Shown: positions 1-44,905 of the stretch, in pieces
Numbering within the stretch: position 1 is the stretch's first letter
How the letters are laid out: every line of letters starts with the position of its first letter
NCBI GenBank assembly: GCA_965248265.1
Contig: CBDFJF010000002.1
Span: forward strand, 2,144,001-2,208,000
Direction: 5' to 3'
Origin: Candidatus Latescibacterota bacterium
GTDB taxonomy: Bacteria; Latescibacterota; UBA2968; UBA8231
Length of the DNA stretch: 64,000 nucleotides
Program-made: the position numbers and the translations under genes
The notes under the pieces: model-generated
What the model was told of the DNA's origin: nothing
The model's database searches: none
Seen by the model: the letters and a program-made list of their open reading frames with translations, nothing else

Positions 1-1649
1 GAGCGCCAGTCGCGGCGCACGGTGTCGGGCCGGATGTCCTGGTCGTCGTTGTCCTCGACCATCTCCACCACATGGTTGCGTTCGCTGGTGTAGTCTATCC
101 GTCCATCCGGCGCAGCGACGAAGGTGCGTGTGTTGTATCGCGGGTCCATACTGTAGAATTCGCTGAAGAAGAAGAACGGGGCGGCCTGGTGCGCTACGTT
201 TACCATCCACGCGGGCGCGCTCTCATCGCCCCCGATGCCGGAAGTGGCCTCGTGCTTGTCCTTGCCGAGTTTCGGGTATTTGCGGTAGCTCCAGCTCCGG
301 TCATACTCGGCGTAGAGGTCGAAACCGAGGAATTCGCGTACTTCGAGGGAGGCTCCCGCGACATGGGTGGCGGTGGGCAATCCGTAGCTGAAGCGGAGGG
401 TCGTCAAGTTGGTGATGTCCTTGACGTTGCCTTCCGCCTGGGTCACCAGTAGCAGCGCCGGTCGCCGTTCGATGTCCGTCTGTCGGTCCGAGGTCATCCA
501 GACCTGGTAGTCGTTGCCTATTTGCAGGTCGAAATCGACGCCGACGATCTGGTCTTTGGAAAGGCTCAGATCTGCGAGGTTATTGTCGTTCCGATAGCGC
601 TCGATGTTCTGCAGGTAATCGACGCCGTCGAAATCGTAGAGCAAGCGGATCTCCTCGGCGCCGTCGGCCGCGAGGAACCCCTGGCGCACGAAACCGCCGT
701 CGATGACGGGTTCGAACTGAAAATCCGTGCCGCGCAGGACGGTGCCATCCTCATAAGTGATGATGATGTCCGTGCCGGCCGGGAAGAAGGCCGCCCCACC
801 TTCGCCGTCTTCGGGTGAGTCGTCCCGCAACACGATCTGGATCAAGCCGATGGTCTGATTCTGATCCACGGTCAGGGCGCCGGCAAAAGGGGTCCAGTCG
901 ACTTTGTCCGACAGGGTACTGCCTTGATGTGAGTTGACCATATGGGCCCCGAGCTTGACGAAGCTGCCCAACTGCGCTGTGAAGCGGCCCCCAAGCAGGC
1001 TGGTGAGGTTGGTGGTGCGCGACTCTCCGGTGCCTGTTGAGGAGCCACCGGGATCGCTGATACGGGAAAAGAGCAACGTCGCTTCGTAGCGATCGGCAGC
1101 CAGGTCGAACTGGATGCCGTCGAACATCGGCTTGGAAAAGACCATCGGTGTCAGCGTTGTGCGCAACCGATTGGAGATGCTCATCGCGTAGTGATACTGG
1201 CCCTTTTGGTCAGAAGCCACGAGGAGCCCGGAAAACCAGTCCTGGAAGCGCTCGGGTTTGACCAGGGTGTTGCCGAACTGCTGTGGGGAAGTCTGGGCGT
1301 TGTTGTAGATCAACCAGCCGCGGGTGACGAAGTTGCCGTAGAGATCGTAGAAGTAATCTCCCTCGAGGATGTTGGAAACGTAGCGCTGGTAGGGACTGCT
1401 GGCGTAGTTCGTGTACTCCCACTGCCGCCACCGGTGCTCCTCGAACAGCTCCTGAGGCACGTACCAGCGGCGCACGGCTGGATCGACGGCGTTGAGCATG
1501 ACGCCCGGTCCCTGTGGGTCGAAGCTGAGTGCCCCGCCCTGCCGCACTCCCAGACGTGACCCGTAGTCTGTCTGACCTGAAGCCGCCGTGTAGGCCATGA
1601 GCAGGTTGAGCACTGATATGCAGAAATACAGCGGGAGCCTGACGCTCAT
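1..1649 (-). CDS. Exported protein of the unnamed ~950-aa putative outer-membrane barrel family (paralog A; runs off left edge)
   Basis: Manual translation from ATG 1649 (SD AAGGAAGG): MSVRLPLYFCISVLNLLMAYTAASGQTDYGSRLG...RRWYVPQELF...WEYTNYA...GDYFYD.YG...RTTLTPM.FSKP...DDSPEDGEGGA...YGLPTA...EDNDDQD; motifs match the genes at 26130, 31237 and 34103; no stop inside the window. Confidence 0.9.
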   Translation of the reverse strand, partial: MSVRLPLYFCISVLNLLMAYTAASGQTDYGSRLGVRQGGALSFDPQGPGVMLNAVDPAVRRWYVPQELFEEHRWRQWEYTNYASSPYQRYVSNILEGDYFYDLYGNFVTRGWLIYNNAQTSPQQFGNTLVKPERFQDWFSGLLVASDQKGQYHYAMSISNRLRTTLTPMVFSKPMFDGIQFDLAADRYEATLLFSRISDPGGSSTGTGESRTTNLTSLLGGRFTAQLGSFVKLGAHMVNSHQGSTLSDKVDWTPFAGALTVDQNQTIGLIQIVLRDDSPEDGEGGAAFFPAGTDIIITYEDGTVLRGTDFQFEPVIDGGFVRQGFLAADGAEEIRLLYDFDGVDYLQNIERYRNDNNLADLSLSKDQIVGVDFDLQIGNDYQVWMTSDRQTDIERRPALLLVTQAEGNVKDITNLTTLRFSYGLPTATHVAGASLEVREFLGFDLYAEYDRSWSYRKYPKLGKDKHEATSGIGGDESAPAWMVNVAHQAAPFFFFSEFYSMDPRYNTRTFVAAPDGRIDYTSERNHVVEMVEDNDDQDIRPDTVRRDWR

Positions 1650-1705
1650 CAATTAACCTTCCTTTGCCAATATCGTGACAGCCGGAGGTAGCCGTTCTGC
1701 GAGTC

Positions 1706-3343
1706 CTACCCCAAGCGTTCTTCGAATATCTCGATGCGCTCCTCGTATTTATCGCGCAAGCTCCTGATGAACGCGATGGTGAGTTCCTGCTTGCGCTCCT
1801 CGGTGATCAAGTAACGTGCCTGTTGTTCCACTTTTTCGAATGGCCGAATATGGCTGTCGATGCGCTCGACGACACGTAAGAGCGAGTAGGCTTTGTGGTG
1901 CTTGACCCAGACAGGGCCCACCAGCTCGCCTTCCTGTGCGGCAAGGGTCGGCTCGATCAGCTCGGGCATGGCGCCGGCCCTTACCTTATGTACTCGCAGC
2001 TCACCTCCCAAGGCCCTTTTGCCATGGGTGTGCACGTCTTTCCGGGTCAGCAGTTCGGCGATCGTGGTGCCTTCCTCAAGTAACCGACGCCACTCTCTGG
2101 CCTCGGCCTCGCCGGCTGTATACACCTCACGCACGACCGCTTCCTCGAAGGCGCGGAAGCGCTCGCGGTTGGCGTCGTAGTAGGAGCGTACGTCTACATC
2201 TCGGATATCGAGCTGGTTGTCCACCTCATACCCCATCAGGTCTTTCACCAGCAGCTCGTCATGTTTGCGCTGGCGCCAATCGATTAATTCCTCCTCATCC
2301 TCCCAGCCCTCGTCGCGCGCAGCTGCGGCGAATAGCCACTTGTGTAATACCACTCTGTCTGCCAGATCGACGACCTGAGTGCTGTCTTCGAGGGGTATGT
2401 GGTGCCCGATCGCCTGTAGGCCCTTCAGGCACTCACCTGCGTCAATGTGACCACCATTGAAGCTGTAGAAGGGCTGTCCCGCCTGCTCCGGGGCCAGCTC
2501 CACTTTCTGCAGGTTCTCGTGTCCGATCAGAACGCGCAGACCCGGCATCAGGCGAACACCATACCTGTGGGTGAGAAGCTCGACCTGTTCCTGCTTCCGG
2601 AGCCAGACTTTCTCCTGGTAGGCACGTCGCTCGATCCGCTCCCGATGAGTGAAGAGATCCGCATCCCGATCCTCGACGAACTGGATGACTTGCCACAGCT
2701 GTGGTGAAATCTTGTTGATGGCGAACTCCCCCGTGGGAAGGGAAGTGAAAACCCGACGCTGGATGGACCACCGCCTGGCGTCCATGAGACTGATCCAGCC
2801 GAGCTCTCCGTCGCGGGTCAACTCGTCGTTGGTAGCGAAGCGCTGCGCCATCTCTTCGAAGGGAGAACCGGAATTCAGCTCTTTTGCGATCTGTTCCGCC
2901 TCGGTTTCGCTGCGCACCATTACGCGTCTCAACCGCCGTTCGCGGTCCAGACCCGTCTCCTTGAAAATGCGTTCGATGTCCTCCTCAGTGACCTCCACCT
3001 GGGGGCCGATGGTCCGGAATTCATACATCTGGGCCAGGCGCCCCTGGATCGTCTGCCGGAGATCGTACAGGAATGCCTCGTCCTCATGCAGACCCCGAGC
3101 CCGAGCCTCCACGATGAGCATCTGATGATCTAGGGCTGAGTTGAGGTGGTCGAGGTCGGCTTCCCGGCCCTTTTCCGTCGAGCGAACGGTCTCTGGCAAA
3201 CGCGCCACGAAACGCTCGAGATCGGCCACCGTGATCTGATTGTCGCCGAGGCGGGCGAGTACCGGGCTGTCATCGGAACCGCAGCCGGATAGGGTGACCA
3301 GTAGCAGAGAAATGATGAATCTCAGAGAAATGATGAATCTCAA
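1706..3343 (-). CDS. SurA/PrsA-like lipoprotein chaperone with two PpiC (parvulin) domains
   Basis: Lipobox LSGC; 'VLARLGDNQITVADL' SurA-N-like start; two rotamase-like segments (EAEQIAKELNSGSPFEEMA...GELGWI; EAREWRRLLEEG...GELVGPV); TTG start after GGAAGG. Confidence 0.82.
   Translation of the reverse strand: MRFIISLRFIISLLLVTLSGCGSDDSPVLARLGDNQITVADLERFVARLPETVRSTEKGREADLDHLNSALDHQMLIVEARARGLHEDEAFLYDLRQTIQGRLAQMYEFRTIGPQVEVTEEDIERIFKETGLDRERRLRRVMVRSETEAEQIAKELNSGSPFEEMAQRFATNDELTRDGELGWISLMDARRWSIQRRVFTSLPTGEFAINKISPQLWQVIQFVEDRDADLFTHRERIERRAYQEKVWLRKQEQVELLTHRYGVRLMPGLRVLIGHENLQKVELAPEQAGQPFYSFNGGHIDAGECLKGLQAIGHHIPLEDSTQVVDLADRVVLHKWLFAAAARDEGWEDEEELIDWRQRKHDELLVKDLMGYEVDNQLDIRDVDVRSYYDANRERFRAFEEAVVREVYTAGEAEAREWRRLLEEGTTIAELLTRKDVHTHGKRALGGELRVHKVRAGAMPELIEPTLAAQEGELVGPVWVKHHKAYSLLRVVERIDSHIRPFEKVEQQARYLITEERKQELTIAFIRSLRDKYEERIEIFEERLG
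3305..3342. repeat. 18-bp tandem duplication CAGAGAAATGATGAATCT x2
   Basis: Seen directly; gives LRFIIS-LRFIIS in the signal peptide. Confidence 0.95.
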
Positions 3344-3511
3344 GGTACCTTCCAATATGGCGATCGGATTGCATGGAACTGGCAAACAAAGTAGCCAATT
3401 TCACTTCTGTTTCCGAGCAAAAAATATGGTGTGGTGGTGTGATTCTGAGGCTGCGGGCTATGTTCTCGACCGAACCTGCCGCAGTGCTCTCAGCTTTCGA
3501 GGCCTCGTGAC

Positions 3512-4465
3512 TTGGTAACCCTGCAAACAAGACATTCCCTATCACTGATCATTGGCGTGCTGGCAGTAGGCGGCATGACAGCTGCTGAGCCGGAGGCCGG
3601 CGGAGCCGCCATAGGCCAGGAGAGCACCCAGGGGGTCTGGTTGCTTCGACAAGGGCGTCCGAGGGAAGCACTGACCCTTCTGAAACAGGCCGCGGAGAGA
3701 GAGCCGACTGATCCCCAAATCCACTACAATCTGGGCGTCGCCCACGCCAGGCTGAGAGACTTCGCGAAAGCGGTGAAGGCCTTCGCGCGTGCCGTAGATC
3801 TGGCACCGCAACATCCAGACGCGCATTTCGCCCTGGCCGTCGTCATGGGAGTTGAGCACCGCCAGACCGAGGCAGCCGCCCACTTCGAAAAGGCGGCAGC
3901 GCTGGCGCCACAGCGGGCGGATTACCATTTCCGCCTCGGCAAAGTCCGCAAGGCTCTGGGCCAGGTCGAAGAGGCCCTGACGGCTTTCGCGACGGCGATC
4001 GAACTGGATTCGACGCATGTGGAAGCCCACTATCTGCGAGCCGACTTACTGGCCTTGAGCAACCGACCTGAAACAGCCGAGGAGGGGTACCGGCGCGCAC
4101 TCGAAATCGACGGGCAGCGCGCCGACGTCCTACTGGGTTTGGGCACGGTCTGCGTGCAACAGGGGAAATACCTGCAGGCCGCCAAAGCGCTGATTCGTGC
4201 CGTCGAACTGGAACCGCGCAATACCGCTGCCCTTTACCTTTTGAGCCAAGCGTACCTGCACCTTGGCCTGCCAAGCGAGCGTGAGCAGGCTTTGGAGGCC
4301 TTCCAACGGCTGAGCTCGGCCCAGTGGTTTTACAAGCAGGGCGACCTCTACGCCCGGCGCGGAGCGCTCGCAGCGGCGCGAAAGGCATTGGGGGAGGCCC
4401 TGGTGCTTGATCCGGACCACGCCGAGGCGCGGGAAAGGTTGTCGCAGCTGGGAGCAGAGCCATGA
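3512..4465 (+). CDS. Tetratricopeptide repeat protein, probably exported
   Basis: Repeated TPR consensus (HYNLGVAH, HFRLGKV, LLGLGTV, AVELEP); hydrophobic N-terminus; overlaps the next start. Confidence 0.88.
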   Translation: MVTLQTRHSLSLIIGVLAVGGMTAAEPEAGGAAIGQESTQGVWLLRQGRPREALTLLKQAAEREPTDPQIHYNLGVAHARLRDFAKAVKAFARAVDLAPQHPDAHFALAVVMGVEHRQTEAAAHFEKAAALAPQRADYHFRLGKVRKALGQVEEALTAFATAIELDSTHVEAHYLRADLLALSNRPETAEEGYRRALEIDGQRADVLLGLGTVCVQQGKYLQAAKALIRAVELEPRNTAALYLLSQAYLHLGLPSEREQALEAFQRLSSAQWFYKQGDLYARRGALAAARKALGEALVLDPDHAEARERLSQLGAEP

Positions 4466-6150
4466 AGGGACACTTTCAATTTTCCGTAGCGCTTCTGATC
4501 CTGTTCTCAGTCTGTTCGTCGTCGGAGGCGAAGGAGGGGGGGAGCGCTGGGACCGCGGTCGCGCCGCGCCGCTTTACGGAGGTGGGTGCGGATCTGGGTT
4601 TAACGCGACTCCACACTGGTGGCACCGATGAAAAGGGCTATATCGTCGAGGCCAAGGGGGGAGGAGCCGCCTGGTTGGACTTCGACGGCGACGGAGCTCT
4701 GGACATCTACTGGGCTAACGGGTCGACGCTGGACGACGCGCAAGGAGCTGGCAACGCCCTTTATCGCAACGCAGGCGACGGTTTCGTCGATGTGGCCATG
4801 GCGCTGGGCGCAGAGGGAAGGGGCTGGTCGATGGGTGCCGTCAGCGCCGACTACGACAACGACGGAGATGCGGATGTATATGTCACCAACCTGCAAGACA
4901 ACATTCTCTACCGCAATGACGGCGATGCTGGTTTCCAGGAAGTGGGTGGAGAGGCCGGTGCCGCTGCCGCCATCTGGAGCACGGGCGCGGCCTTCGGAGA
5001 TTACGACAGGGATGGGGATGTCGATCTCTACGTAGCTTCCTACGCGGAGTTCGACCCCGGGCAGATCCCGCACCTGGGAGCCTTGTGGAAGGGGGTGAGG
5101 GTGTTCGTCGGGCCGATGGGCCTGGTGCCAGAAGCGGATAGATTCTACCGCAACGACGACGGCCGCTTCGTTGACATCACCGGGGAGGCCGGCCTGGCGC
5201 AGCGGCAACCGGGTTACGGCTTCGGCGTGCTCTTCGTCGACTACGACGACGACGGGGACGCCGATCTCTTCGTCGCCAACGATTCCAGCCCCAACTTTCT
5301 CTACCGCAACGACGGCGACGGAACCTTCGCAGAGGTGGGGCTGCAGGCTCAGGTGGCGTACGGGGGGATGGGAATGCCGCAGGCCGGCATGGGTGTGGCC
5401 TGGGGCGATTTTGACGGTGATACACGTGCCGACATTTTCGCGACCCACTTCGAGGATGACTACAACACACTGTATCGCAACGAGGGTGGGGGCCTGTTCG
5501 TCGATGCTACGGTCGGGGCCGGATTGGGCAGGGCCAGTTTTCACTACGTGAGCTTCGGCAGTGGGTTCTTCGACTGGGACAACGACGGCGATCTGGACCT
5601 GCTGGTGGCCAACGGCCATGTCTATCCCCAGATAGAGCGTTCGGGTAGTGGCATCAGTTACGCCCAGCCCGACCAGCTCTTCGACAATCGCGGTGGGGGG
5701 CGTTTCGAAATGCTGCTGCCGGGAGCCGGAGACAGTCTGGGCACGGCCAGGGTGAGCCGCGGGAGTGCCATCGCCGACTACGACAACGACGGCGATCTGG
5801 ATATGCTCATCGCCCACCTCAACGACCGGCCGGCGCTTTGGCGCAACGACGTGGGAAACAGGCAGAACTGGCTGGGTGTGAAGTTAAATGGCAGTAGAAG
5901 CAATCGGGGCGGAATCGGCGCCCGGCTGCGCCTGACGGCGGGAGGCCGGGTGCAGGTCCGCGATGTTATCTGCGGGAGCAGTTTTCTCTCCAGCGAGGAC
6001 CCGCGGGCGCACTTTGGACTGGGCCAAATCGCCACGGTGGATTCACTCGAGGTGCGCTGGCCGAGCGGGACTGTCCAGGTGTTGAGAGACGTGGGGATCA
6101 ATCAGTACCTGGTTGTGGAGGAGGGCGAATACCCCGAGCCTAGCCACTGA
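4462..6150 (+). CDS. CRTAC1-family FG-GAP/ASPIC-UnbV protein
   Basis: Multiple DYDNDGDxD FG-GAP repeats, NxLYRNxG motifs, C-terminal SNRGGIGA...GSSFLSS...HFGLG...WPSG; signal peptide. Confidence 0.93.
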   Translation: MKGHFQFSVALLILFSVCSSSEAKEGGSAGTAVAPRRFTEVGADLGLTRLHTGGTDEKGYIVEAKGGGAAWLDFDGDGALDIYWANGSTLDDAQGAGNALYRNAGDGFVDVAMALGAEGRGWSMGAVSADYDNDGDADVYVTNLQDNILYRNDGDAGFQEVGGEAGAAAAIWSTGAAFGDYDRDGDVDLYVASYAEFDPGQIPHLGALWKGVRVFVGPMGLVPEADRFYRNDDGRFVDITGEAGLAQRQPGYGFGVLFVDYDDDGDADLFVANDSSPNFLYRNDGDGTFAEVGLQAQVAYGGMGMPQAGMGVAWGDFDGDTRADIFATHFEDDYNTLYRNEGGGLFVDATVGAGLGRASFHYVSFGSGFFDWDNDGDLDLLVANGHVYPQIERSGSGISYAQPDQLFDNRGGGRFEMLLPGAGDSLGTARVSRGSAIADYDNDGDLDMLIAHLNDRPALWRNDVGNRQNWLGVKLNGSRSNRGGIGARLRLTAGGRVQVRDVICGSSFLSSEDPRAHFGLGQIATVDSLEVRWPSGTVQVLRDVGINQYLVVEEGEYPEPSH

Positions 6151-8081
6151 CAAGTTGTAGCACCAGTGCGTACAGCGCCATCACGCCCTGCGGCACCCAC
6201 TCGCCGATGATGAGCCCGAGAAAAAAGGGGCGCAGGGCCTTGAAGAGCCGCGGTCCCCCGTATTTGAGGGCTGCGCTCTTGATCGCCCAAGCGAGCAAAA
6301 TGCTGAGGAACATTTTGTTGGCGGCGACGCTGATGGGGAAGGCGATCGGGTGAAAGGGCCACCAGACGAAGCGGTGCCGGGCGACAGGCACCGAGTCCGG
6401 CGTGGCCCCAGTACTCCCAGCTGGGCTCCGTCATCGTCCCGAGCCGCCCCGCGGCATCCTCCCAGGGCCGCAGCGTCTGGCCGCGGAAGTACCATGACGT
6501 GTTCAGCCCCCCGTGCTCGTAGGCCAGATCGAGCACCAGCCACACGGCACTGAACAGCGTTACAACGACGGCAATCAACATGCTCCAAAAGAGCAGCCGC
6601 CGCCCTTGCTGTACCGTCTCCTCGATCACCTTGAGCCCGTTGGCCGCCGAGGTCATCACCAGCAGGATCATGTCACTGGCCCAGGCATACGTGAAACCCA
6701 GGGCGATGATGCCGCCCGGCTGCAAGGCGCGGGTGCCGAGGCCGCCGACGATGGCGTCCGAGGCGACGATGGGGATCAGGAACTGGGCGACGCCACCTTC
6801 GGCGATGATGCGGGTAATCCCCAGATAGATGATGAAGGCGATGAACAGGTAGAGGGGAGTGATCCAGGCCGGCATGCCCGCGCGCCACATCCAGAAGGCC
6901 ATGAACCCCAGGCTGCCGAGCGTCGCCAGCACGGCGGCGCGATACGACATGATCTCGCCGACGTCATCTTCGCCCTCGCGCTTGAGTCCGATGGTGTGGC
7001 GCAGCACCAGCAGGAGATGGTGACGGGCGTTCCACAGGCCTACCCCCACGAGGGCGACGAAGGCGCCCAGGCCCTCGAAGGCGAAGGTGGACTCCTGCGA
7101 CCACGAGCTCCACAAGGGGTCTTGCTCGCGGGGGCCTTGCAGGGTGGATAAGATCTGGTAACCCACATAGACGACGAAGAAGAAGCACAGCCCGAGGCTG
7201 ATGTCGCGGCGGATGAAGTAGGCGAAACCGATCATCATGAAGCTGATGCCCATGCGGATGCCGACGGTCTCGCGGAAGAAGTAGAAGTAGGTGCCGCCGA
7301 CATGGATGTAGTCGATGGGGAAGTGGCGGGCGAGGCCGTTGTTCATGTTGATGATGAACGGAACGATGAACCCGGCCCAGAACAACCAGTTTCTGAACAG
7401 CGGTTTGATCAGGGAGGGTCTTCGACCCTCATCGTCCAGGATCATGGCGATGGGCAGCTGGATCATCGGGTAGGACAGGCGCTCGTGGTTGATCCACTGC
7501 TTGCGCAGGATGACGACGATGGCAATCATGGCGATGTAGAGGGACAGCATCAGGGGCAGCCACTGGAGCAGAGCCGGCAGCCACAGGCCCCAGGCCACGG
7601 AGACGCCGCTGCGGCCCTCGTAGAAATCCTTGAGCAGCTCGCCGTCCTTGGTGGGGATGGCCCAGTCGGGGACGAGAGGCAGGATCACCTCCGTCCAGTT
7701 GTTCTCGGGCGAGGCGTAGTAAGCGAGGGTGGTGATCTCGGGCAGGAACGGGCCGACGAAAGCCGATGTAGTGACGGCCGAACCGACCGTCCACATGACG
7801 AAGATCTGTGTCAGCTCAGCTGGCCTCAGCATCCAGCTGCGCCGTACCAGCCCCACGGCCGGGTTCACGATCAGCGCCATCATGAACAGCATGATATTGG
7901 CGCCAATGGTGTAGTACCAAACGGCGAAGGCAAAGCCGCCCAGCACCATATCGCAGTACTGAAAGCCAGCACCCACGATTAAGCAACCGAGAGAGCCGAC
8001 GGCGAGGCCGCGGTAGCTACAACCTGAGCCGGAGGGCGAGTGGATCACGCCGCCTGGCACGCCGTGCCCACTGCGAGGCAC
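6140..8081 (-). pseudogene. DUF6785/DUF6784-type polytopic membrane protein, frameshifted by a ~20-nt deletion near 6386-6390
   Basis: YYASPEN, LRKQWINHERLSYPM; C-terminal WWPFHPI...GGPRLFKALRPFFLGLIIG lies in another frame (ORF 6140..6391); paralog residues VVMALLM are missing. Confidence 0.78.
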
Positions 8082-9746: not shown

Positions 9747-11128
9747 TTGCTTTCAGTGCCGCTCTGGTTGTGAATGGTCCTCTGTATCTCGAGATACTCA
9801 GGCTGGCCGGGTTCGAGCTCGAGCGCCTTGGCGATGGCAGCTACTGCGTCGTCGTGCTTTCGGTTTTGGTGATAGGCGTGAGCGAGTGTAGCCCAATAGG
9901 GGCCAATCGGGTCCAATTCAACAGCTCTGCGGGCAAGCGCCATGGCCTCATCCAGCCGCTGACCCTGCTGGAGATAGTACCATGCGAGGGCATTGCAAGC
10001 CGGCGCAAAGTCCGGTTGGAGAGCGACTGTCCTTTCGAAGGACTGAATCGCGGCGTCGGTCTGCGCTTGTTTTTGGTAACTCCATCCAAGCTGATAGTGT
10101 GCCACCGCGAAATCGGGCTGCAATTCAACGGCTCGCTGCAGGTTAATCTGTGCGTCGGTCAACCGAGAAAGCCCCATATAGGCGGCTCCGAGTCCATAGT
10201 AGGGGTAAGCATCCGTCGGGCTCACAGCCACGAGTTGCTCGAATTCCTCTGCGGCCACGGTGAAATCCTGCAACTGAAGCGCCGTGGAGCCCAGCATGCG
10301 ACGAACCTCTACCGACTCCGGCTTCAGCTCGAGGTAGGCGCGATAACTTTGAACGGCGTCTTCCCATTCCTTCTGTTGAAACGCAATGGCGCCGACTTTG
10401 GCATGAGCAGGCGCGAACTCGGCATCCATGTCGAGCGCTCGTTGGTAGGCATTATTGGCTTCCCGTAAATCGCCTTTCTTGAGGGACTGCTCTCCCTCGA
10501 TGAACCGTTGCTGCGCTTTGATGGATTGGAAGGCCTTCAAGCGCCGTCTGCCTTCGTCTTGATTGCCCAAACGGAAATGTGCATTGGCCAGTTGATAGTA
10601 GGCGCCCGTATTGGTGGGATCGAGGTCAATCGCTTGTTCGTACTCGGGGATTGCTTCCGAAAAGTTTCCCTGCTGGGCGAGCAAAATACCCAATTTGTAG
10701 TGGGGTAAGGATCGGTCCGGGTCGATCTGGATGGCATGTCGATACTGTGCCAGCGCTTGTTCAAAGAGCCCTCGGCGCGCGAAGATCACACCCAGGTTGT
10801 AGTGGGCTTGAAGCAAGTTGGGCTGGAGCTGCAGGGCACGGGTATAGGATTCAATCGCCTCGTCGAGTTGGCCGATCTTGGAGTAGACGGTGCCCAGTTG
10901 TACATGCGCTGTGACATTTCGAGGGTCAATGTTCAAGGCCCGCGTCAGGTATTCGATCGCTTCGGGGAAATTGTTCTGTTTCCTGGATCGCTCCGCGGCT
11001 TCGATATGGGCCTGTACTTCCGATTCCGAATGGACAGGCCAGGCGCAGAACAACAGGAGCAGGTGAATGCTCCAGGTGACGCGCGACGCTTGTTGCCATG
11101 TCAAAACCATCCGAATGTCCCGGGCCAC
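9743..11128 (-). CDS. Exported TPR protein
   Basis: About ten TPR units (AHYNLG, YYQLANA, NALAWYY...TLAHAY); stop overlaps the CRTAC1 start. Confidence 0.9.
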   Translation of the reverse strand: MARDIRMVLTWQQASRVTWSIHLLLLFCAWPVHSESEVQAHIEAAERSRKQNNFPEAIEYLTRALNIDPRNVTAHVQLGTVYSKIGQLDEAIESYTRALQLQPNLLQAHYNLGVIFARRGLFEQALAQYRHAIQIDPDRSLPHYKLGILLAQQGNFSEAIPEYEQAIDLDPTNTGAYYQLANAHFRLGNQDEGRRRLKAFQSIKAQQRFIEGEQSLKKGDLREANNAYQRALDMDAEFAPAHAKVGAIAFQQKEWEDAVQSYRAYLELKPESVEVRRMLGSTALQLQDFTVAAEEFEQLVAVSPTDAYPYYGLGAAYMGLSRLTDAQINLQRAVELQPDFAVAHYQLGWSYQKQAQTDAAIQSFERTVALQPDFAPACNALAWYYLQQGQRLDEAMALARRAVELDPIGPYWATLAHAYHQNRKHDDAVAAIAKALELEPGQPEYLEIQRTIHNQSGTESK

Positions 11129-14089: not shown

Positions 14090-14204
14090 CGCCATGGTCC
14101 AGTAAACTACATACTGTAATCGAGGACGCTTCGATGACGGAAGCAACACCTGACGGCTACGCCTGCCGAAGGTGCACAACGCACCCATCTACGGACCAAG
14201 AGAG

Positions 14205-16082: not shown

Positions 16083-16110
16083 AGGCCAGGAGATCCGTCG
16101 GGAGGACACC

Positions 16111-20457: not shown

Positions 20458-20466
20458 CAACACGGT

Positions 20467-37099: not shown

Positions 37100-38989
37100 A
37101 TGCACCCGGCCGCGCTGCGTTGGACAATGATCGGCGCGGTCGTTTTGTCGAGCTGTACGGGCGGTGAGGAGGGACCCGCCGAGGGTCGGGCATTTTTCGT
37201 CGACGTCGCCGCAGAGAGCGGCATCGAGTTCGTCCACACCGCCGGCGGCCAGGGAGACTACTACCTCATCGAGACCATGGGTGCCGGGGGGGCGTTCTTC
37301 GACTACGACAGTGACGGGCTTCTCGACATCTATCTCGTGGAAGGATTCTCCATCGGTATCGGCACCGATTTCAGCCCCCTGAACCTCCTCTCGGAGACCT
37401 CTACCCGCTATCTCATCAGGCATCCCATGGAGTACCGCCGCCCTCCTCGTCTGGACGGGGAAGTCGACAGTCTCGCGTATCGGGTTCGTCAGAGCGCCGA
37501 GCCGTTCGTCAGAAACCGCCTCTATCGCAACAATGGGGAACGGGCAGAGGGAACATTCTCAGACAGGACCTCGGAGGCCAGAGTGGGAGATACGGGGTAC
37601 GGTATGGGGTGTGCAGTGGGAGACTACGATAACGACGGCGATGCGGATCTGTATGTCGTCAACTACGGACCGAACACGCTGTACCGGAATGAAGCAGACG
37701 GCAGTTTTGTCGACGTCACGGAGCACATGGGGGTCGGCGATCCGAGCTGGAGCGCGGGCGCGGCCTTCTTCGATTATGATAGCGACGGTCGGCTCGACCT
37801 CTACGTCGTCAACTACCTCGACTTCCACGTCGGCAATAACCTGATCTGCGGCGGCAACGAGGAGGCGCAGGAATCGCCGGCTGGCACCTTGCTGAGAATG
37901 CGCAAGGACCGCCGCTCGTACTGCAGCCCGAAAGGGTACAACGGCGCTGCTGATGTCCTCTACCACAACACCGGAAGTCGCTTCGAGAGCACGTTCGAGA
38001 ACGTGACGCGAGAAATGGGCATCTTCAGCCCGTACGGAAAGGGTCTCGGCGTCGTGACGTCCGATTTCGACGGGGACGGGGACACGGACGTCTACGTGGC
38101 TAACGACGGCGTGAGAAATTTTCTCTACCGGAACGAGGGCGGCGAGCAGTTCGCGGACATCGCAGTGGCGGCGGGAGCGGCGTACAACCGGGATGGTCGT
38201 GCGGAGGCGGGCATGGGCGTGGACTGGGGCGATTTCGATGGAGATGCCGATTTCGATCTCTTCGTCACCAATTACTCGAGACAGACCAACACACTCTATC
38301 GAAACGATGGTGCAGCCGTGTTCAACGACGTCACGGATGTCGTCCAGCTGTCAGAGAGCAGCCACAACCCCCTCGGCTTTGGGACGTTCTTCTTCGAGGC
38401 CGACAACGACGGCGATGTGGATCTGTTCGTCGCCAACGGCCACGTCCAGGACAAGGTTCATTTTTTCGCCGGAAACGAGGGCATCACGTATCCACAGCCG
38501 AACCAGCTTTTCGCCAACAGCGATGGTCGTGAATATGTGGAAGTGTCCAGTCAGAGCGGTCCCGGGCTGGAGCCTGTCCTCGTCTCCCGCGGGAGCGCCT
38601 TTGGAGATTACGACAACGACGGCGATCTCGACATTCTCGTGACCAACTGCGACGGCCCGGCACAGCTGCTGCGCAACGACTTGTCAGCGAAGAGGAACTG
38701 GCTCTCGGTTCGCCTGATCGGCAGAGACGTGAACCGAGATGCCGTTGGATCCAGAATCGCGGTCACCTGCGATGGCGCTACCCAGGTTCGGGAGGTGAAG
38801 ACGAGTGGCAGCTACGCCTCAGCCAGCGATATTCGGCAGCATTTCGGGCTCGGTGACTGCGGTGCGGTCCAGAGTCTGGAGATCATCTGGCACGACGGTT
38901 CGCTGCAACTGGTGGACGGGAAGGAGGTGTTGGTGAATCAGTTTCTGACGATCGAACAGGAAGATTCTCGCGGGGCCTCCCGTCAATAG
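37100..38989 (+). CDS. CRTAC1-family FG-GAP/ASPIC-UnbV lipoprotein
   Basis: Lipobox LSSC; FG-GAP repeats; NRDAVGSRI...SGSYAS...HFGLG. Confidence 0.92.
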   Translation: MHPAALRWTMIGAVVLSSCTGGEEGPAEGRAFFVDVAAESGIEFVHTAGGQGDYYLIETMGAGGAFFDYDSDGLLDIYLVEGFSIGIGTDFSPLNLLSETSTRYLIRHPMEYRRPPRLDGEVDSLAYRVRQSAEPFVRNRLYRNNGERAEGTFSDRTSEARVGDTGYGMGCAVGDYDNDGDADLYVVNYGPNTLYRNEADGSFVDVTEHMGVGDPSWSAGAAFFDYDSDGRLDLYVVNYLDFHVGNNLICGGNEEAQESPAGTLLRMRKDRRSYCSPKGYNGAADVLYHNTGSRFESTFENVTREMGIFSPYGKGLGVVTSDFDGDGDTDVYVANDGVRNFLYRNEGGEQFADIAVAAGAAYNRDGRAEAGMGVDWGDFDGDADFDLFVTNYSRQTNTLYRNDGAAVFNDVTDVVQLSESSHNPLGFGTFFFEADNDGDVDLFVANGHVQDKVHFFAGNEGITYPQPNQLFANSDGREYVEVSSQSGPGLEPVLVSRGSAFGDYDNDGDLDILVTNCDGPAQLLRNDLSAKRNWLSVRLIGRDVNRDAVGSRIAVTCDGATQVREVKTSGSYASASDIRQHFGLGDCGAVQSLEIIWHDGSLQLVDGKEVLVNQFLTIEQEDSRGASRQ

Positions 38990-41013
38990 GCCAGTGAGAC
39001 GACCTTGAGAGCGGTGTTCGTCCCCTCGTCGGTAGCGACGTCGAGGCGCAGGATGTATACCCCCGGTACGGCGAGTGTGCCGGCGCCGTCTGTGCCGTCC
39101 CAGGTTGCGCTCTGACGTCCGCTCGTCGAAGGCCCGTCAAAGACGACGGCCACCTTTCTGCCCGCCAGGTCGTACAGACTTAGTGTGACGGGTACGGCAC
39201 CGGACAAGTTGACGAGGTCGAAGGAGATCTCGATGGCGTCGTTGACACGGTCGCCGTTGGGGGTGGCCACCGGAGTCGACAGCTGGAAGGCTTGTATCGA
39301 GCTCTGGCCGAGATCGGCCAGTCCCACTGAGAGGGTGTTGCTGTCCACCAATTCGTCGGCGTCGCCGGCGGCGATGCGCTGACGCGGCTCCCCAAGTCGG
39401 GAGCTGTCGAAGACCCTGCCCCGAAAGACGGTTCCGAACTTGAACACCTCGGTCTGGAACACGATTTCGATCAACTCGTTCGTGCGCTGCAGGTCGATGT
39501 GGGGGAGATTGACGACGAAGCTGGTCGGACCCGGCTCCCAACCCCACTCCGACTCATCCAGGTACACCTCGTTTATCCGCACCGAATCCACGCTGGTGAC
39601 CTCGGTCGCCGTCTCGATCTCGATGCTGTCGAACCCGAGGTCCCTGCGGAGCAGCTGCGGCAGCACCAGGTACCGGAACTGGGTCAGGGTTCGCGCCGCC
39701 ACTACGGGTGGAGCGATCTCCGCCACCACCTGGCTGGCGATCGGCGGGCTCGATACGCGGAACTCGAGATAGTCGAGGCGCCGTCTCGAGCGGGTGTTCG
39801 AGGACGTGAGGTCGACGTCGAACTGCACGTATTGGCGTGGTCCATCCGCCGCCAGCGGCGCTTCGCGGGCATCGAAATCGAGCGGGGTCGTCCAGAACTG
39901 CCAGTTCTTGCTGTCCGGCGCGATGCCTGCCCGTTCACCGGCCTCGAGTCTCGCGTAGCTGGCGCGGGTCAGGGGTTTGCCGTCGGTGTCGAGGCCCGAG
40001 CGCTCCTCTCCTCTGAAGGTGTAGCGCGAGTATTTGTTGGGATCCGGGGTGTTGCCGCTGCGGGTGATGAGGTCCACCGTGGCGTCGGCCTCGCGCACCC
40101 CGCTCCACACGAGATCACCCAGGGTGGAGGGCTGTCCCAGATCGAGGATGTTCGAGCGGTAGCTCGCCCGCGGTACGTACCCATCTCCGTAGATCTCGAA
40201 CTCGGCGATTTCCCAGTCTCCTGTCAGGGCGATCAGGAAGATATTCTGAGTCGGGAAGCTGCTCACTTCCAGATCGAGGGTGGATATCCGGTTCTCGGTC
40301 GAGGAGAACACGATCCCCTCTCTCTCCCAGTCGACGAAGTCGGTCTCGTTCCGCGCGTATTGTAGGCTTCTGCGGGCTGTACCCTCAGGGGGTCCTATCG
40401 GAAGACCCAGACCTCGCAGGCCGTCCTTGCGTTCATCGCCGTCGTTGACCGCAATGGTGATCTCCTGCACGAAGCGCTGGTGCGCGTATCTCGGTGTGGG
40501 ATACATCTTGATGCGGGTAATGGGAAGGGGACCGCCGAGATCGATCGCGAGAATCTTGTACTGGCCATACGAGAACCCCGAAGAGCCGCCGTTGAACGCC
40601 GTCGTCGGGGCCTCGTCGATCATCAAATCGAGACCTGGTTCGTCACTGGAGGAGAAGCCGTCCGTCGACTTGATGGAACCGCCCCTGGCCCTGACGAAGG
40701 GAGTCAGATTGACGTTGGGGTCCAGCCTCTCGGGGGCTATGAAATCCGGGGCGAGTTCGACGAGACGACTGCTGCCGAAGAGCGCGTCGTCCGTCCCCGT
40801 CCACGGCAGCTGGACGAATCTGGAGGCGTCCCCGACCTCCGGTGCCGGCAGCTCGTCCCAGTTCAACCGCATGATCTCCAGCGGTCCGTCGATATCCGGC
40901 GCAGGGAGGCTCTCGCCACCGATTCTGTAGATGGTGACCGCGCCGCTATCCGATATCGACGACATGGCGAGTGCTAAGGCGAGTAGCCTGAACTGCAGTC
41001 GAGGCTTATCCAT
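38983..41013 (-). CDS. Secreted discoidin-like + FlgD-Ig protein (paralog of 28913)
   Basis: IDLGG...RIKMYP, WEIAEFEIYGDGYVP, TPNGDRVND...LYDLAGRKV...WDGTD...PGVY; ends VSLAY. Confidence 0.83.
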   Translation of the reverse strand: MDKPRLQFRLLALALAMSSISDSGAVTIYRIGGESLPAPDIDGPLEIMRLNWDELPAPEVGDASRFVQLPWTGTDDALFGSSRLVELAPDFIAPERLDPNVNLTPFVRARGGSIKSTDGFSSSDEPGLDLMIDEAPTTAFNGGSSGFSYGQYKILAIDLGGPLPITRIKMYPTPRYAHQRFVQEITIAVNDGDERKDGLRGLGLPIGPPEGTARRSLQYARNETDFVDWEREGIVFSSTENRISTLDLEVSSFPTQNIFLIALTGDWEIAEFEIYGDGYVPRASYRSNILDLGQPSTLGDLVWSGVREADATVDLITRSGNTPDPNKYSRYTFRGEERSGLDTDGKPLTRASYARLEAGERAGIAPDSKNWQFWTTPLDFDAREAPLAADGPRQYVQFDVDLTSSNTRSRRRLDYLEFRVSSPPIASQVVAEIAPPVVAARTLTQFRYLVLPQLLRRDLGFDSIEIETATEVTSVDSVRINEVYLDESEWGWEPGPTSFVVNLPHIDLQRTNELIEIVFQTEVFKFGTVFRGRVFDSSRLGEPRQRIAAGDADELVDSNTLSVGLADLGQSSIQAFQLSTPVATPNGDRVNDAIEISFDLVNLSGAVPVTLSLYDLAGRKVAVVFDGPSTSGRQSATWDGTDGAGTLAVPGVYILRLDVATDEGTNTALKVVSLAY

Positions 41014-41085: not shown

Positions 41086-42000
41086 CTACTTCCTGAAGGA
41101 CGCCTTGATGTTCGCCCAGCTGTCCTCTTCGACGGCCGTCGGGTCGATGATGTCCGTGTCTATTGGCAGCAGGAGATAGTCAGACAGGAAGTCGGCATTG
41201 CAGCAGGCCTGGCCGGGGACGCCCAGATTCCAGCGCGCATTATTTCTGTCCTCGCCTTCATCGGTGCCGTCAGTGTCGTCCACGCTCACGTTCAGGCCGA
41301 TGATCTCGCCTTCCATCATCGGGTGCTCGACGCCGGCGTTGGGATCATCATGGTTGTAGTCGTCAAACACCGTGAACATGAACTCGCCACGGTAATTAAA
41401 CTCCTCACTGTTTCCCGGCGTACCCTCGTATTCGTAGACCCCGTCCCCCCACGGCAAGTCATCGTGCCAGTCCGACGCGGACATCCAGGCCCAGAGCCAC
41501 GTTTCCTTTCTCAAGCCGTCGTCGAAATAGACCTGGTAGATCTGGGCGTGGCGGTTCCGGTTCCGTAGGTTTTCCTCATCCGTGCCACCTTCGATGTTCC
41601 AGAAGGTGCCGCCCGAATGGTCGGCGTCGATGGCAGGCGAGATATTGTCCCATTGCGTCCAGTCGTTGTCGAACCGCTCGTAGGCCCAGTGGAGCTTGCT
41701 CGAGCCCTGCACGAAGCTCGGTATGAAGCGGAACGAAAGGTCGGATGCGTCGAGGTCTGCCGCCTTCGTTTCATTTCCGTCGAACATGAACGAAGAGTTC
41801 ACATTGTAGTTCTCGTGCGTAAACCAGAATTCCTCCGGGACCCTGTCCCAGTCGGACAGGTCTGCATCACGCACCGGCACTTGGTTCGCCGGCCACTGCC
41901 AGATTATGCCCCGATAACCTTCCGGAGCATGCCCAACCACAGGGGCGCTGAGGGCGCAGATCAGAGCACAGACACCCAGGCCTGCTACGATCTTCTTCAT
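41086..42000 (-). CDS. Secreted acidic protein (CBM9/DOMON-like) with C-terminal PTAVEEDSWANIKASF tail
   Basis: SD AAGGAGG, MKK signal peptide, DADLSDW, IDADHSGG, IIGLNVSVDD; fold call is inference. Confidence 0.78.
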   Translation of the reverse strand: MKKIVAGLGVCALICALSAPVVGHAPEGYRGIIWQWPANQVPVRDADLSDWDRVPEEFWFTHENYNVNSSFMFDGNETKAADLDASDLSFRFIPSFVQGSSKLHWAYERFDNDWTQWDNISPAIDADHSGGTFWNIEGGTDEENLRNRNRHAQIYQVYFDDGLRKETWLWAWMSASDWHDDLPWGDGVYEYEGTPGNSEEFNYRGEFMFTVFDDYNHDDPNAGVEHPMMEGEIIGLNVSVDDTDGTDEGEDRNNARWNLGVPGQACCNADFLSDYLLLPIDTDIIDPTAVEEDSWANIKASFRK

Positions 42001-42179: not shown

Positions 42180-42289
42180 TTGTAACTACCTACCGAAAAG
42201 TTGTGCGTGAAAAATCGCGGCCTGCTCAACTGGGCCAAATAACCCAAATTGCACGAACCAAACCGAGGAGAGCCTGTAAGAGGTCCCCC

Positions 42290-44905
42290 ATGAGGTGGTT
42301 CGGATACAACATGCTGGTCGTTTCGACTCTCCTGTGCGCCGTTTCCGGCGCCCAGGCCCAGAAGGGTCACAGGATCAGAGCGAACGACGTCGTGATCGAG
42401 GGAAGACGTCACTTCGAGAACTGGGTGTCGGCCGCCGCCACCGTCGAGGTCGGCGTGGATGGCGTCCGTCCGCGGCACCTGCGAAGGCACACGAACGCCG
42501 TCCTCGAAATCGTGGAGGCCTTGCGCCAGCGGCCACCGAAGCACCTGAGGAACACGCCGCCGGAGCAGATCGAGCTGATCGACGCGGTGCAGGCCGGCTC
42601 GAACCGGGAGGATGTGGTCAACGTCTTCGACGGTGACATGAAAACCTACTGGGAGCCCGAGCCCCCGTCGTCAGACGAGGTCAATCTGGCCAGCGAGTGG
42701 TGGTTCACGGTGGATCTGGGACGGGTCGTGTTCGCCAACCGGATCGTCCTGCGCTTCGTCCATCCCAGGCAGGGAGATCCCTTTCTCCTGTTCGACGTGC
42801 TCACCTCGGATGGCCAGAAGCCGCCCTCCGCGATCGCCGGCGAGAACATCGAGTTCCTGCCGGTGATCGAGACAATCGAGCCGAACAGGACCCGGCGGCG
42901 CTTCGAAGTGGATCTGTCCTACGCCGGCGAGGACGCGCGAGAGACCGTCATCAGGTTCGTCCAGGTCGTCGTCCGGGGCAGCAATCTGGACCGCGGTACT
43001 GAGGTGGGCGAACAGGAGTACGGTCTGCTGGATGCCGGGGAACAGGGAGTGGTGGAGTATACCAAGCGCCTCAGCGACGCGAGGGAGTCGGCAGTGCCCG
43101 AGCAGGTCTACTGGGAGCTGGAGCCCGAGCGACGGGGCAGCATCCGCTACTTCCGCCGCGAACGCCCCCGGCTTGCAGAGCTCGAAGTGTGGGGAGATGG
43201 CGACGAGATCCTGGGCGGCACGCTGTTCCGCGGTGGGGCGATCGAGGGAGAGAAATTGGAAAATGTCGGCACCCTCCTCGACGACGATATGCTCACGAGC
43301 CTCTTCGTGGATACCGATGGTCCCGTCGGGAGTCAGGATGAGGTCGTGGTCGATCTGGGTTCATCCTACTGGATCGACAGTCAGCGAATGGTCGTGTCTT
43401 TTCGGCCGAACGAGCATGCTTCCAGTTTCTTCAAGTACGAGCTGGATTTCTCAGACGGTCGCCGGCATGCAGACGGCAGCCCCGTGTGGACAGTGGTGAA
43501 GCGCATCGAGCGGGAGCATATCGGCCATTTCTTAGGCCGCGTCCCGGCGAGCAGCATGATCGTCGATCGGCACGATTTCGATCCCGTCAAAGCCCGTTTC
43601 TTCCGGCTCCTGTGGGACGTCGAGCCGCGTAAGATTGGGAACCACGTCTATCTGGCGGAGATGCAGCTGTTCGGCTCTGGCTACCAACCCGAAGTCAGGC
43701 TGGAGTCTGACAACATCGAGATGCCGGGCAGTCAGAATCTCACCGAGATATCGTGGGAAGCCGACACGCCTCCCGGTACGCAGGTGGTGCTGCAGACGAA
43801 GACGGGAAACACCGTCCTCTCTGATACGCTCTATTACACCGATGACGGTGAGCTGCTGGGCAGAGGGGAGGCTGGGTCGAAGAAGTACTACAGCCGGGCT
43901 TGGAGGAGCAGCCAGGGCGAGAAGAAGCTCCTTCTCGAGGATGGACCGGATTGGTCGCCTCTGAGCGAGCGCTACGAGGATTCCTCCGGGAGCAAGATCA
44001 CCTCGCCGGCGCCTCGCAGAATGGTCAAGGTCCGTGCGACGCTGCTCTCCGACGACCCTCAAACCGCCGCCACGCTGCGCTCGATCCGGTTGAGGTTTGC
44101 CGATCCCATAGCGCGTCGGCTGCTGGGCGAAGTCATGCCGGCCAGAGTCGAGGCCCTGGGAGTCGAGCGCTCCTTTTCGCTGTATGTGAAGGTGGACACA
44201 CTGGAGCAGCGGTTCGACGAGCTCCTGGTGCGGGCTCCCGCGGGCATGGTGCTGGGAGAGGGAGATGATGTCGAGGAGCAGGTACACTTGTTTTCCGGTC
44301 TGGCCGCGGCAGACGAGCTGCAGCAAGCCGGCGATCTGCAGGTCCTGGGCTATGGCGACAGTCTCCACGTAAAATTTCCCCTCCTAGAATCCAGCGTAGA
44401 GGTCTTGCGGCTGGATTTTCCGGCGACGCTGTATTCCAGCGGCGGCCGTCTGGAGGCTTCCCTGCGGAACTCGGACTCGGAATTCTGGCAGCAAGTCGAT
44501 GTGGGCGATGCCACCAGCGAGATCGCCAGCAACACGCTGATAGTGGTCGCTCAGCCCGAGAGCAAGCAACTGTTCCGGGAACTGAATATCTCGCCGCGGG
44601 TCGCCTCTCCCAACGGCGATGGCATCAACGACGAGATCGTCGCCGAGTTTACCGTCGTCCTCTTAGGAGTGAGCGAGGCCGTTGAGATGGAGATCTACGA
44701 TCTGAGCGGTCGTCTCGTTCGTCGCTTGACAGCGCAGCGCGAGGCAAGCGCTGGCCGCTATCGGATCGACTGGGATGGCCTCGACGAGTCGGGCAAGCTG
44801 GCCCCGCCGGGGTTGTACGCGCTGCGGCTGAGCCTCGACGCCGACACCGAGGGCGCCGGGATCGATGAAAAGCACGCGGTGCGTACGATCGCACTGGCGT
44901 ATTGA
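42290..44905 (+). CDS. Secreted protein with two discoidin-like domains and a FlgD-Ig C-terminus
   Basis: FDGDMKTYW...VDLGR...LAELEVWG; second VDLGSSY...LAEMQLFG; SPNGDGIND...IYDLSGRLVR...WDGLD...PGLY; ends IALAY. Confidence 0.84.
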   Translation: MRWFGYNMLVVSTLLCAVSGAQAQKGHRIRANDVVIEGRRHFENWVSAAATVEVGVDGVRPRHLRRHTNAVLEIVEALRQRPPKHLRNTPPEQIELIDAVQAGSNREDVVNVFDGDMKTYWEPEPPSSDEVNLASEWWFTVDLGRVVFANRIVLRFVHPRQGDPFLLFDVLTSDGQKPPSAIAGENIEFLPVIETIEPNRTRRRFEVDLSYAGEDARETVIRFVQVVVRGSNLDRGTEVGEQEYGLLDAGEQGVVEYTKRLSDARESAVPEQVYWELEPERRGSIRYFRRERPRLAELEVWGDGDEILGGTLFRGGAIEGEKLENVGTLLDDDMLTSLFVDTDGPVGSQDEVVVDLGSSYWIDSQRMVVSFRPNEHASSFFKYELDFSDGRRHADGSPVWTVVKRIEREHIGHFLGRVPASSMIVDRHDFDPVKARFFRLLWDVEPRKIGNHVYLAEMQLFGSGYQPEVRLESDNIEMPGSQNLTEISWEADTPPGTQVVLQTKTGNTVLSDTLYYTDDGELLGRGEAGSKKYYSRAWRSSQGEKKLLLEDGPDWSPLSERYEDSSGSKITSPAPRRMVKVRATLLSDDPQTAATLRSIRLRFADPIARRLLGEVMPARVEALGVERSFSLYVKVDTLEQRFDELLVRAPAGMVLGEGDDVEEQVHLFSGLAAADELQQAGDLQVLGYGDSLHVKFPLLESSVEVLRLDFPATLYSSGGRLEASLRNSDSEFWQQVDVGDATSEIASNTLIVVAQPESKQLFRELNISPRVASPNGDGINDEIVAEFTVVLLGVSEAVEMEIYDLSGRLVRRLTAQREASAGRYRIDWDGLDESGKLAPPGLYALRLSLDADTEGAGIDEKHAVRTIALAY

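Follow-up and report, generated by a model that had tools for sequence, protein, structure and literature searches.

A Latescibacterota-specific outer-membrane cassette of giant predicted barrels and lectin-like proteins with type-B-like tails

The window analysed here is a stretch of 64,000 nucleotides from a Candidatus Latescibacterota bacterium (assembly GCA_965248265.1, contig CBDFJF010000002.1; G000:C2:2144001-2208000 of a genome of 7.32 Mb in two contigs, 92% complete), for which an initial annotation had proposed an undescribed envelope machine. Its core is a Latescibacterota-specific outer-membrane cassette, in which the gene of a lectin-like protein (S, 600-790 aa) stands directly before one or two genes for giant predicted barrels, together with a CBM9-like protein (CL4, ~300 aa), an F5/8-type-C protein (LG, 850-1160 aa) and a SurA-like parvulin (560-730 aa); a second, diverged barrel often lies downstream of the first. 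The cassette probably forms a cell-surface glycan-binding complex. We give about even chances to the proposal that its barrels hold lectin-like proteins, exported by a type IX secretion system (T9SS), at the cell surface, by analogy with SprF-SprB and PorP-PG1035 of Bacteroidota and with an unrelated giant barrel in the place of SprF or PorP.

Genes of the cassette, their arrangement and conservation

Pfam was searched with 26 open reading frames (ORFs) of positions 1-44905 of the window and with 14 ORFs further right. The gene families named in the initial annotation proved real, as parvulins, TPR proteins, FG-GAP/UnbV_ASPIC proteins, DUF6785 proteins and FlgD_ig/CHU_C tails were all detected and the barrels are paralogs, and the gene orders were also as described, with overlaps of 4 nt or gaps of 1-72 nt. 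On the forward strand, barrel B (26019-28916; 1632 bits to barrel profile A1) is followed by S1 (28913-31228), barrel C (31237-34101, 8 nt after S1) and barrel D (34103-37090, 1 nt after barrel C and 41% identical to it), with barrels B and C representing one subtype (C/B) and barrel D a diverged one (D). S2, a second S-family protein with a C-terminal domain (CTD; 38983-41013, reverse strand; FlgD_ig 4e-7), shows BLAST similarity to other S proteins over its full length. Upstream of S2 on the same strand lies CL4 (41086-42000), previously called a tail protein, which is instead a secreted CBM9_1-like protein of ~300 aa with 8 paralogs near barrels of the same genome. Divergent from CL4 and S2, the forward strand carries LG (42203-44905), a 900 aa F5/8-type-C (discoidin/CBM32-like) protein with a type-B-like CTD (F5_F8_type_C 2e-6, FlgD_ig 5.5e-11, CHU_C 8.5e-5), similar to other LG proteins over its full length. 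The left edge of the window holds the N-terminal 550 aa of barrel A (3-1652, reverse strand; whole gene G000:C2:2142935-2145652; 953 bits to profile A1), and 53 nt upstream of it lies the gene of a SurA-like parvulin, a probable lipoprotein with an LSGC lipobox (1706-3385, reverse strand; Rotamase_2 E 2.3e-10). The second parvulin (22318-24015, reverse strand) has two peptidyl-prolyl isomerase (PPIase) domains (Rotamase_2 7e-20, Rotamase 8e-15, weak SurA_N). A FlgD stub said to follow it was not found: the next gene encodes a PhyH dioxygenase, and the CTD profile finds three tails in the whole window.

The genome as a whole encodes 13 full-length barrel paralogs and about 5 distant ones, and the cassette recurs at 11 loci in it. 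Cassette neighbours around them were collected by crude gene calls (a GC3-based greedy pick) and all-against-all BLAST, which also led to the observation that LG and S have their C-terminal ~400 residues in common. Because these calls miss genes, for example two barrel-adjacent S genes, the neighbourhood counts for this genome and for the other loci are lower bounds. Within 10 kb of the 11 barrel loci, S was found at 7, LG at 7, CL4 at 5 and a parvulin at 5, and in each case none of 2000 permutations of the gene positions reached the count. For the parvulin, 5 loci also have one at a distance of no more than 5 kb. DUF6785 was found at 7 loci (0 of 2000 permutations) and fusions of PMT_2 and TPR domains at 3 (5 of 2000). 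CRTAC1-like proteins at 4 loci (79 of 2000) are weakly enriched, and generic CTD proteins occurred at 2 (1613 of 2000).

Hidden Markov models (HMMs) of the cassette families, trained on this genome, were then used to label 80 cassette loci in 41 assemblies of other genomes, many of the loci being orthologous and hence not independent. S was present at 79 of the 80 loci, CL4 at 63, a parvulin at 61 and LG at 57; CRTAC1-like proteins were present at 27, DUF6785 at 23 and PMT_2-TPR proteins at 14. The loci contain 89 runs of barrel genes, 8 of them at contig edges, and 70 of the 81 others are preceded, on their own strand and within 300 bp, by an S gene. Where two barrels adjoin each other in other genomes, a C/B-type barrel precedes a D-type barrel in 45 of 49 pairs.

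The barrel profile matches 107 of the 168 genomes of the phylum Latescibacterota, among them all 75 genomes of the family to which the bacterium belongs, but none of the 56 genomes from three sister families, many of them >95% complete. DUF6785 occurs in 154 of the 168 genomes, including 56 of 56 from the barrel-less families, and in 0 of 13 from one family with distant barrel matches. When five complete barrel-less genomes were searched, the S profile matched the tail alone (positions 601-728) in 5 of 5, and CL4 was absent from 4 of these 5, with weak partial matches in the fifth. From this presence and absence across barrel-bearing and barrel-less genomes, S and CL4 co-vary with the barrel, whereas DUF6785 is uncoupled from it.

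The barrel family

In each of the four window barrels (~930-995 aa) a signal peptide precedes a conserved Q-x-YGxR start, and none of them matches Pfam or NCBIfam. AlphaFold2 (AF2) modelling of barrel C with an alignment of 29 sequences led to a large beta-barrel of about 26-30 long antiparallel strands (mean pLDDT 67), and its residues 507-631 are an acidic insert with EF-hand-like D-x-N-x-N-G loops. Fold searches with this model (Foldseek, VIA-align) returned generic large barrels only, with Foldseek TM-scores of ~0.2. The best match was the 30-strand barrel of Deinococcus SlpA (Z 15.7, 429 residues aligned, root-mean-square deviation (rmsd) 9.8), and MtrB, LptD, SprA, ushers and TonB-dependent receptors ranked lower. 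By this fold search the barrels fall into the size class of LptD-LptE, MtrB-MtrA/C, SlpA and SprA, but they differ from these in the lack of sequence kinship, in the low TM-scores and in their own high copy number. A barrel gene beside a parvulin gene has a parallel in E. coli, where lptD adjoins surA.

At the sequence level, the barrel profile gave nothing meaningful against PDB sequences, and 0 of 29 family members shared any weak Pfam family. A kinship to TonB-dependent receptors or PorV was rejected, as comparison of the barrel profile with the genome's own TonB-dependent receptors (16) and PorV-like proteins by hhalign gave a probability of 0.1% each; similarly, TonB_dep_Rec and Plug matched neither the window barrels nor the 29 family members. 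Membership in the SlpA family was dropped as well, with a weak SlpA_C match in 1 of 15 divergent members (19.8 bits, cut-off 35) and in 0 of 29 others, and Pfam detected no SLH domain in the barrels of the window.

One homology search with the barrels scored 8000 candidates, of which 640 proteins matched at E<=0.001; another, against 1.84 billion representatives, gave 944 representative clusters at the same threshold. Among 120 listed homologs few source names were seen, all of them 'hypothetical protein'. A genome scan led to at least 608 barrel loci, mostly in metagenome-assembled genomes (MAGs) labelled Latescibacterota, with some from Gemmatimonadota and one from Handelsmanbacteria. From the model and these searches, the barrels are predicted to be an undescribed family of very large outer-membrane barrels. 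The paralog-expanded outer-membrane module of barrels, CTD-tailed lectin-like proteins and parvulin that the initial annotation had outlined is upheld, and it maps onto no described family.

Folds of S, LG and CL4

The AF2 model of S1 had a pLDDT of 90.4 and a pTM of 0.81. Its residues 105-275 form a CBM32 (F5/8 type C) fold, with matches to many glycan-binding CBM32 modules (VIA Z 13-15, rmsd 2.1-2.8 over about 125-135 residues), followed by a short helical segment, Ig-like domains and a type-B-like CTD (residues 666-771) that resembles the CTD of PorU (VIA Z 12.8). A SusE-like protein was also among the fold matches (Z 11.8). CHU_C reached 31.6 bits in S1, over the 27-bit cut-off, and stayed under the cut-off in S2 and LG. 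A search of PDB sequences with S gave FlgD alone, matched against the tail, and a search of the ESM Atlas returned only the protein's own kin. With CL4, the PDB sequence search gave nothing; its nearest clusters in the ESM Atlas carry CBM9_1, and one CL4 paralog passes the Pfam cut-off (CBM9_1 26.3 bits).

Tail classes and T9SS genes

The FTPNGDGxND motif recognized in the initial annotation is present in the alignment consensus of the S family, and the cassette proteins end in a domain of this type, whereas the generic CTD proteins of the genome end in an NYPNPFN-type domain. With motif patterns taken from the alignment consensus and the initial annotation, and class names from NCBIfam descriptions, a barrel lies within 10 kb of 18 of the 23 proteins that carry the type-B-like motif, versus 0 of the 49 with the type-A motif. 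This supports the parallel drawn earlier with the Bacteroidota T9SS, in which the gene of a type-B CTD protein adjoins that of its cognate barrel. In profile searches, TIGR04131 (type B) was matched at E<=0.01 by 6 of 8 cassette tails and by 0 of 8 sampled generic tails, of which 7 of 8 passed TIGR04183 (type A). For S1, TIGR04131 gave 35.5 bits with the tail alone (cut-off 35) and 31.7 bits with the whole protein.

The initial statement that no T9SS or TonB genes are present is true of the 40 ORFs scanned in the window, though not of the genome as a whole. It has a SprA homolog (SprA_N 103 bits in a 2090-aa frame), three copies of PorU (626-655 bits, cut-off 420) and, adjoining one of these, a PorV-like gene (155.6 bits, under the 250-bit cut-off); this set lies at G000:C1:1897904-1902307, C2:2871983-2875108, C2:1023220-1026390 and C1:394094-395350. 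The type-B-like tails of the cassette proteins would be explained by these genes elsewhere in the genome, and the undescribed secretion system proposed initially would not be needed for the CTD cargo. The genome also encodes about 26 ordinary TonB-dependent receptors and one marginal SusD_RagB match (23.2 bits) far from any cassette; Pfam detected no SusD beside the barrels of the window. PorP/SprF was not found in the genome by a search run without a positive control. A literature search found nothing pairing type IX secretion with Latescibacter.

DUF6785 and TPR/CRTAC1 modules

Three DUF6785 copies lie in the window, all on the reverse strand, and match the Pfam model over its full length (352, 342 and 400 bits). 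The first (6102-8081; PF20581 6e-105) is a polytopic membrane protein with ~10 hydrophobic segments, and the third (24048-25991; PF20581 1.2e-119, PF20580 1.4e-24), divergent from barrel B, combines DUF6785 and DUF6784 with ~12 hydrophobic segments. Between them, a DUF6785/DUF6784 gene (11145-13086) is split into two overlapping frames, with ORF 11536-13086 covering profile positions 2-437 and ORF 11145-11957 covering positions 437-498 plus DUF6784. The split near 11712-11717, where a short T run is the sole base run, points to a frameshift or an assembly error.

In the genome, DUF6785 was detected at 36 places by profile search, 32 of them near-full-length, and in 33 genes of >500 aa by the crude gene calls; the proteins have about 10-12 hydrophobic segments. 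Their neighbours are varied, though usually sugar-catabolic, and encode GHL10- and DUF4838-type hydrolase-like proteins, sulfatase, DHDPS-family aldolases, enolase-superfamily dehydratases, aldo-keto reductases, PhyH proteins and histidine kinases. A cassette gene lies within three genes of 6 of the 33 DUF6785 genes, and none does for the other 27. A search of PDB sequences with DUF6785 gave nothing, and a literature search found no paper mentioning it. From the gene context, a putative family of inner-membrane sugar or sugar-acid permeases is the likeliest assignment. The most frequent neighbour of DUF6785 is a Pfam-less family of 450-560 aa, with 9 members within three genes (at L096, L097, L098 and L104; for example L096:471-2156).

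The three CRTAC1-like proteins of the window all consist of an FG-GAP beta-propeller followed by UnbV_ASPIC, and the genome has ~30 copies. Two of them are paired with TPR proteins: on the forward strand the stop of a TPR gene (3512-4465) overlaps the start of a CRTAC1-like gene (4462-6150; FG-GAP_3 5e-43, UnbV_ASPIC 1.5e-23) by 4 nt, and on the reverse strand a TPR gene (9743-11128) has a 4-nt overlap with the downstream CRTAC1-like gene (8088-9746). The third (37100-38989, forward strand), 9 nt after barrel D, encodes a probable lipoprotein (LSSC), so that lipoboxes were noted in one parvulin and one CRTAC1-like protein of the window. Elsewhere in the genome, FG-GAP, UnbV_ASPIC and TPR occur fused in a single protein (L002:1935-4823), which supports TPR and CRTAC1 as a module of their own, weakly linked to the cassette. 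Both DUF6785 and TPR/CRTAC1 are thus separate modules in the same carbohydrate-acquisition neighbourhoods and not obligate parts of the cassette.

Proposed function and alternative readings

For PorP-PG1035 and SprF-SprB of Bacteroidota, the accounts in PMC9143113 and PMC12635249 describe a barrel that anchors type-B cargo at the surface. The cassette resembles SprB-SprF and PG1035-PorP-PorE in three respects: cargo and barrel are encoded by immediately adjacent genes, the tail of the cargo is of the FTPNGDGxND type and tends towards the type-B model with generic type-A cargo elsewhere, and SprA, PorU and PorV-like genes are present in the genome. Because type-B-like cargo adjoins its own barrel and type-A cargo lies elsewhere, as in those systems, a surface lectin-display complex is favoured. 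S and LG would cross the inner membrane by Sec and the outer membrane through the SprA translocon, guided by their type-B-like CTDs, and would stay at the surface bound to their cognate barrel. The dedicated parvulin, often a lipoprotein, may help to fold or insert the unusually large barrels, or may keep the cargo in a periplasmic holding state. Through their CBM32- and CBM9-type domains the displayed proteins would bind glycans, either of polysaccharide particles or of a host or algal matrix, and each paralogous cassette may have a different specificity. Observed here are the genes of the cassette with their order and conservation, the folds, the two classes of tail and the SprA, PorU and PorV-like genes, whereas the export route, the binding of cargo by the barrel, the chaperone role and the binding of glycans are inferred.

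In contrast to the Bacteroidota pairs, the cassette is found in Latescibacterota, it includes a SurA-like parvulin and a CBM9-like protein, and its barrels often form an ordered pair of two subtypes with an acidic EF-hand-like insert. Several observations weigh against the display reading. None of the window's four barrels matched PorP/SprF (PF11751) at E<=0.01, nor did any of 29 members of the barrel family at E<=5, and the cassette barrel (~930 aa) is roughly three times the size of PorP/SprF; the analogy is therefore one of gene adjacency and tail type only. A barrel of 26-30 strands also seems oversized for a mere anchor. The model of barrel C is of moderate confidence and leaves its strongly conserved N-terminal ~110 residues and the insert 507-631 unresolved. 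Of eight cassette tails, one is over the curated type-B cut-off and two pass the type-A cut-off instead. Finally, in the 92%-complete genome the best GldK score was 92.5 bits (cut-off 350), from FGE-fold paralogs only, GldL was not found in a search without positive control, and GldM (GldM_1st) was not found. A working T9SS is therefore unproven, and SprA, PorU and PorV-like genes without detected GldK, GldL and GldM would amount to a T9SS in reduced form in a phylum other than Bacteroidota.

In the main alternative, which we hold to be somewhat unlikely, the barrel or the ordered pair would be a conduit that imports oligosaccharides captured by S, LG and CL4 and so takes the functional place of SusC/SusD in the phylum, with DUF6785 carrying the products across the inner membrane. 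Like the SusC/SusD/SusE/SusF polysaccharide utilization loci (PULs), the cassette has a paralog-expanded barrel, with 13 full-length copies in this genome, and several CBM-like surface proteins, as S, LG and CL4 all are, including the SusE-like fold match of S, and it lies in carbohydrate-catabolic surroundings. The near-absence of SusD from the genome is in line with such a replacement, as are the very large lumen of the barrel, for which the conserved N-terminal domain could serve as plug, and DUF6785 near 7 of 11 barrel loci, with GHL10, DUF4838, sulfatase, DHDPS, enolase-family and aldo-keto-reductase genes as its own neighbours. The cassette differs from SusC/SusD loci, however, in that it has no TonB-dependent receptor, plug or SusD, with the hhalign probability of 0.1% to the genome's own receptors speaking against the former, and in that its surface proteins carry T9SS tails and not lipoprotein anchors. 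No glycoside hydrolases lie inside it, and 0 of 55 representative neighbour families around cassettes of other genomes are classical glycoside hydrolases, although sulfatase and FGE-fold genes do occur there. DUF6785 is phyletically uncoupled from the barrel, and the genome has its ordinary TonB-dependent receptors. That the ordered barrel pair and T9SS-delivered CBM32/CBM9 proteins form a new class of outer-membrane glycan capture-and-import machine, unrelated to the TonB-dependent SusC/SusD and replacing it in Latescibacterota, with the conserved N-terminal domain or the calcium-binding insert gating a lumen of ~26-30 strands, we regard as unlikely. A role of the barrels in export, as cognate translocons or usher-like platforms that secrete S, LG and CL4 or assemble them into a fibre or layer on the cell surface, chaperoned in the periplasm by the parvulin, appears improbable. 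The fold matches do include the ushers FimD/PapC, SprA and the two-partner-secretion barrels FhaC and CdiB, the parvulin immediately adjoins a barrel at 5 loci of this genome, and PMC12611786 describes a periplasmic PPIase subunit in both the SprA translocon and the beta-barrel assembly machine (BAM) of Bacteroidota. But the cargo has T9SS-type tails in a genome with SprA and PorU, no POTRA, usher or two-partner-secretion domains were detected in the barrels, and with TM-scores of ~0.2 the fold matches are those of generic large barrels.

Two further readings are very improbable. One is the single envelope-spanning machine of the initial annotation, whose obligate subunits would be the barrels, the CTD cargo, the parvulin, TPR/CRTAC1 and, as partner in the inner membrane, DUF6785. 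All these families are co-located in the window with overlapping or nearly abutting genes, DUF6785 is enriched near the barrel loci, and PorE of the T9SS, which has TPR and beta-propeller domains and binds PorP as described in PMC9143113, is a loose parallel to TPR plus FG-GAP. As DUF6785 is phyletically uncoupled from the barrel, being present in 56 of 56 genomes of the barrel-less families and in 0 of 13 of the family with barrel relatives, the reading is largely refuted, and with it DUF6785 as inner-membrane partner. Of the 80 cassette loci, 23 contain DUF6785, 27 CRTAC1 and 14 PMT_2-TPR, and no member of the cassette stands within three genes of 27 of the 33 DUF6785 genes. There is similarly little to be expected from a structural or biogenesis role, with the barrels as SlpA-like outer-membrane tethers or porins, or as BAM-accessory-like barrels with extracellular CBM-fold and PPIase partners. 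The SlpA barrel is the best fold match and one divergent member gave the weak SlpA_C match, and the Flavobacterium BAM described in PMC12611786 includes another barrel along with one subunit of CBM fold and one of PPIase fold. Against this stand the lack of an SLH domain, SlpA_C in 0 of 29 members, and the absence of the barrel family from whole sister families; thirteen diverging paralogs, each with a lectin set, also fit substrate specificity better than housekeeping.

Genomic surroundings of the cassettes

The left edge of the window cuts a gene cluster, as barrel A continues beyond it. The ~37 kb upstream (G000:C2:2106712-2144000) hold four further groups of barrel-cassette genes, with three more complete barrels, the remainder of barrel A and genes for S, LG, CL4, one parvulin and three GT-C-like membrane proteins of the PMT_2-TPR type, so that seven barrels in all lie within ~82 kb. 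An island between two cassette parts (window 13298-22124) encodes an MBL-fold protein, two PhyH dioxygenases, an M20 peptidase, a class-A beta-lactamase-family protein and two unannotated proteins of ~600 aa, one with a weak GHL6 match. To the right of the cassette, enolase-superfamily, dehydrogenase and luciferase-like genes (44971-49369) are followed by a 1281-aa GH106-like protein with GH127-, BNR_4- and GH2-like genes (49445-60411). Taken together, 44971-60411 is a sugar or sugar-acid catabolic stretch, in which a distance of 5-15 kb separates the GH106, GH127 and GH2 genes from the last gene of the cassette to their left.

Three protein types recur around the cassettes. Fusions of PMT_2 (protein O-mannosyltransferase-like, GT-C) with TPR directly adjoin barrels in 3 of 11 loci of this genome and 14 of 80 others (for example L005:10291-12486, L012:712-2673, L012:14102-16120 and L013:14853-16931), and may glycosylate surface proteins. 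Small FGE-sulfatase-fold proteins, of the fold of GldK/PorK and with scores far under the GldK cut-off, recur within ~10 kb of some cassettes (G000:C1:1836620-1837789, C2:1905070-1906122 and C2:2000432-2001409; L058:21445-22746). Proteins of 860-960 aa with a spermine/spermidine-synthase domain, one of them with an MFS-like N-terminus, were found near cassettes of this genome and of others (L001:7685-10429, L002:4947-7835; L031:2525-5212, L094:19338-21914).

Implications

DUF6785 is set apart by these results as a probable sugar permease family, separate from the cassette. If the display reading is correct, the rule that type-B cargo is encoded beside its own barrel would extend beyond Bacteroidota, and would do so with a different barrel. 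For five gene families that at present have no annotation in hundreds of MAGs, it would supply names and a testable hypothesis. It would also show how an abundant uncultured phylum, partly associated with sponges and sediments, presents lectins at its surface.

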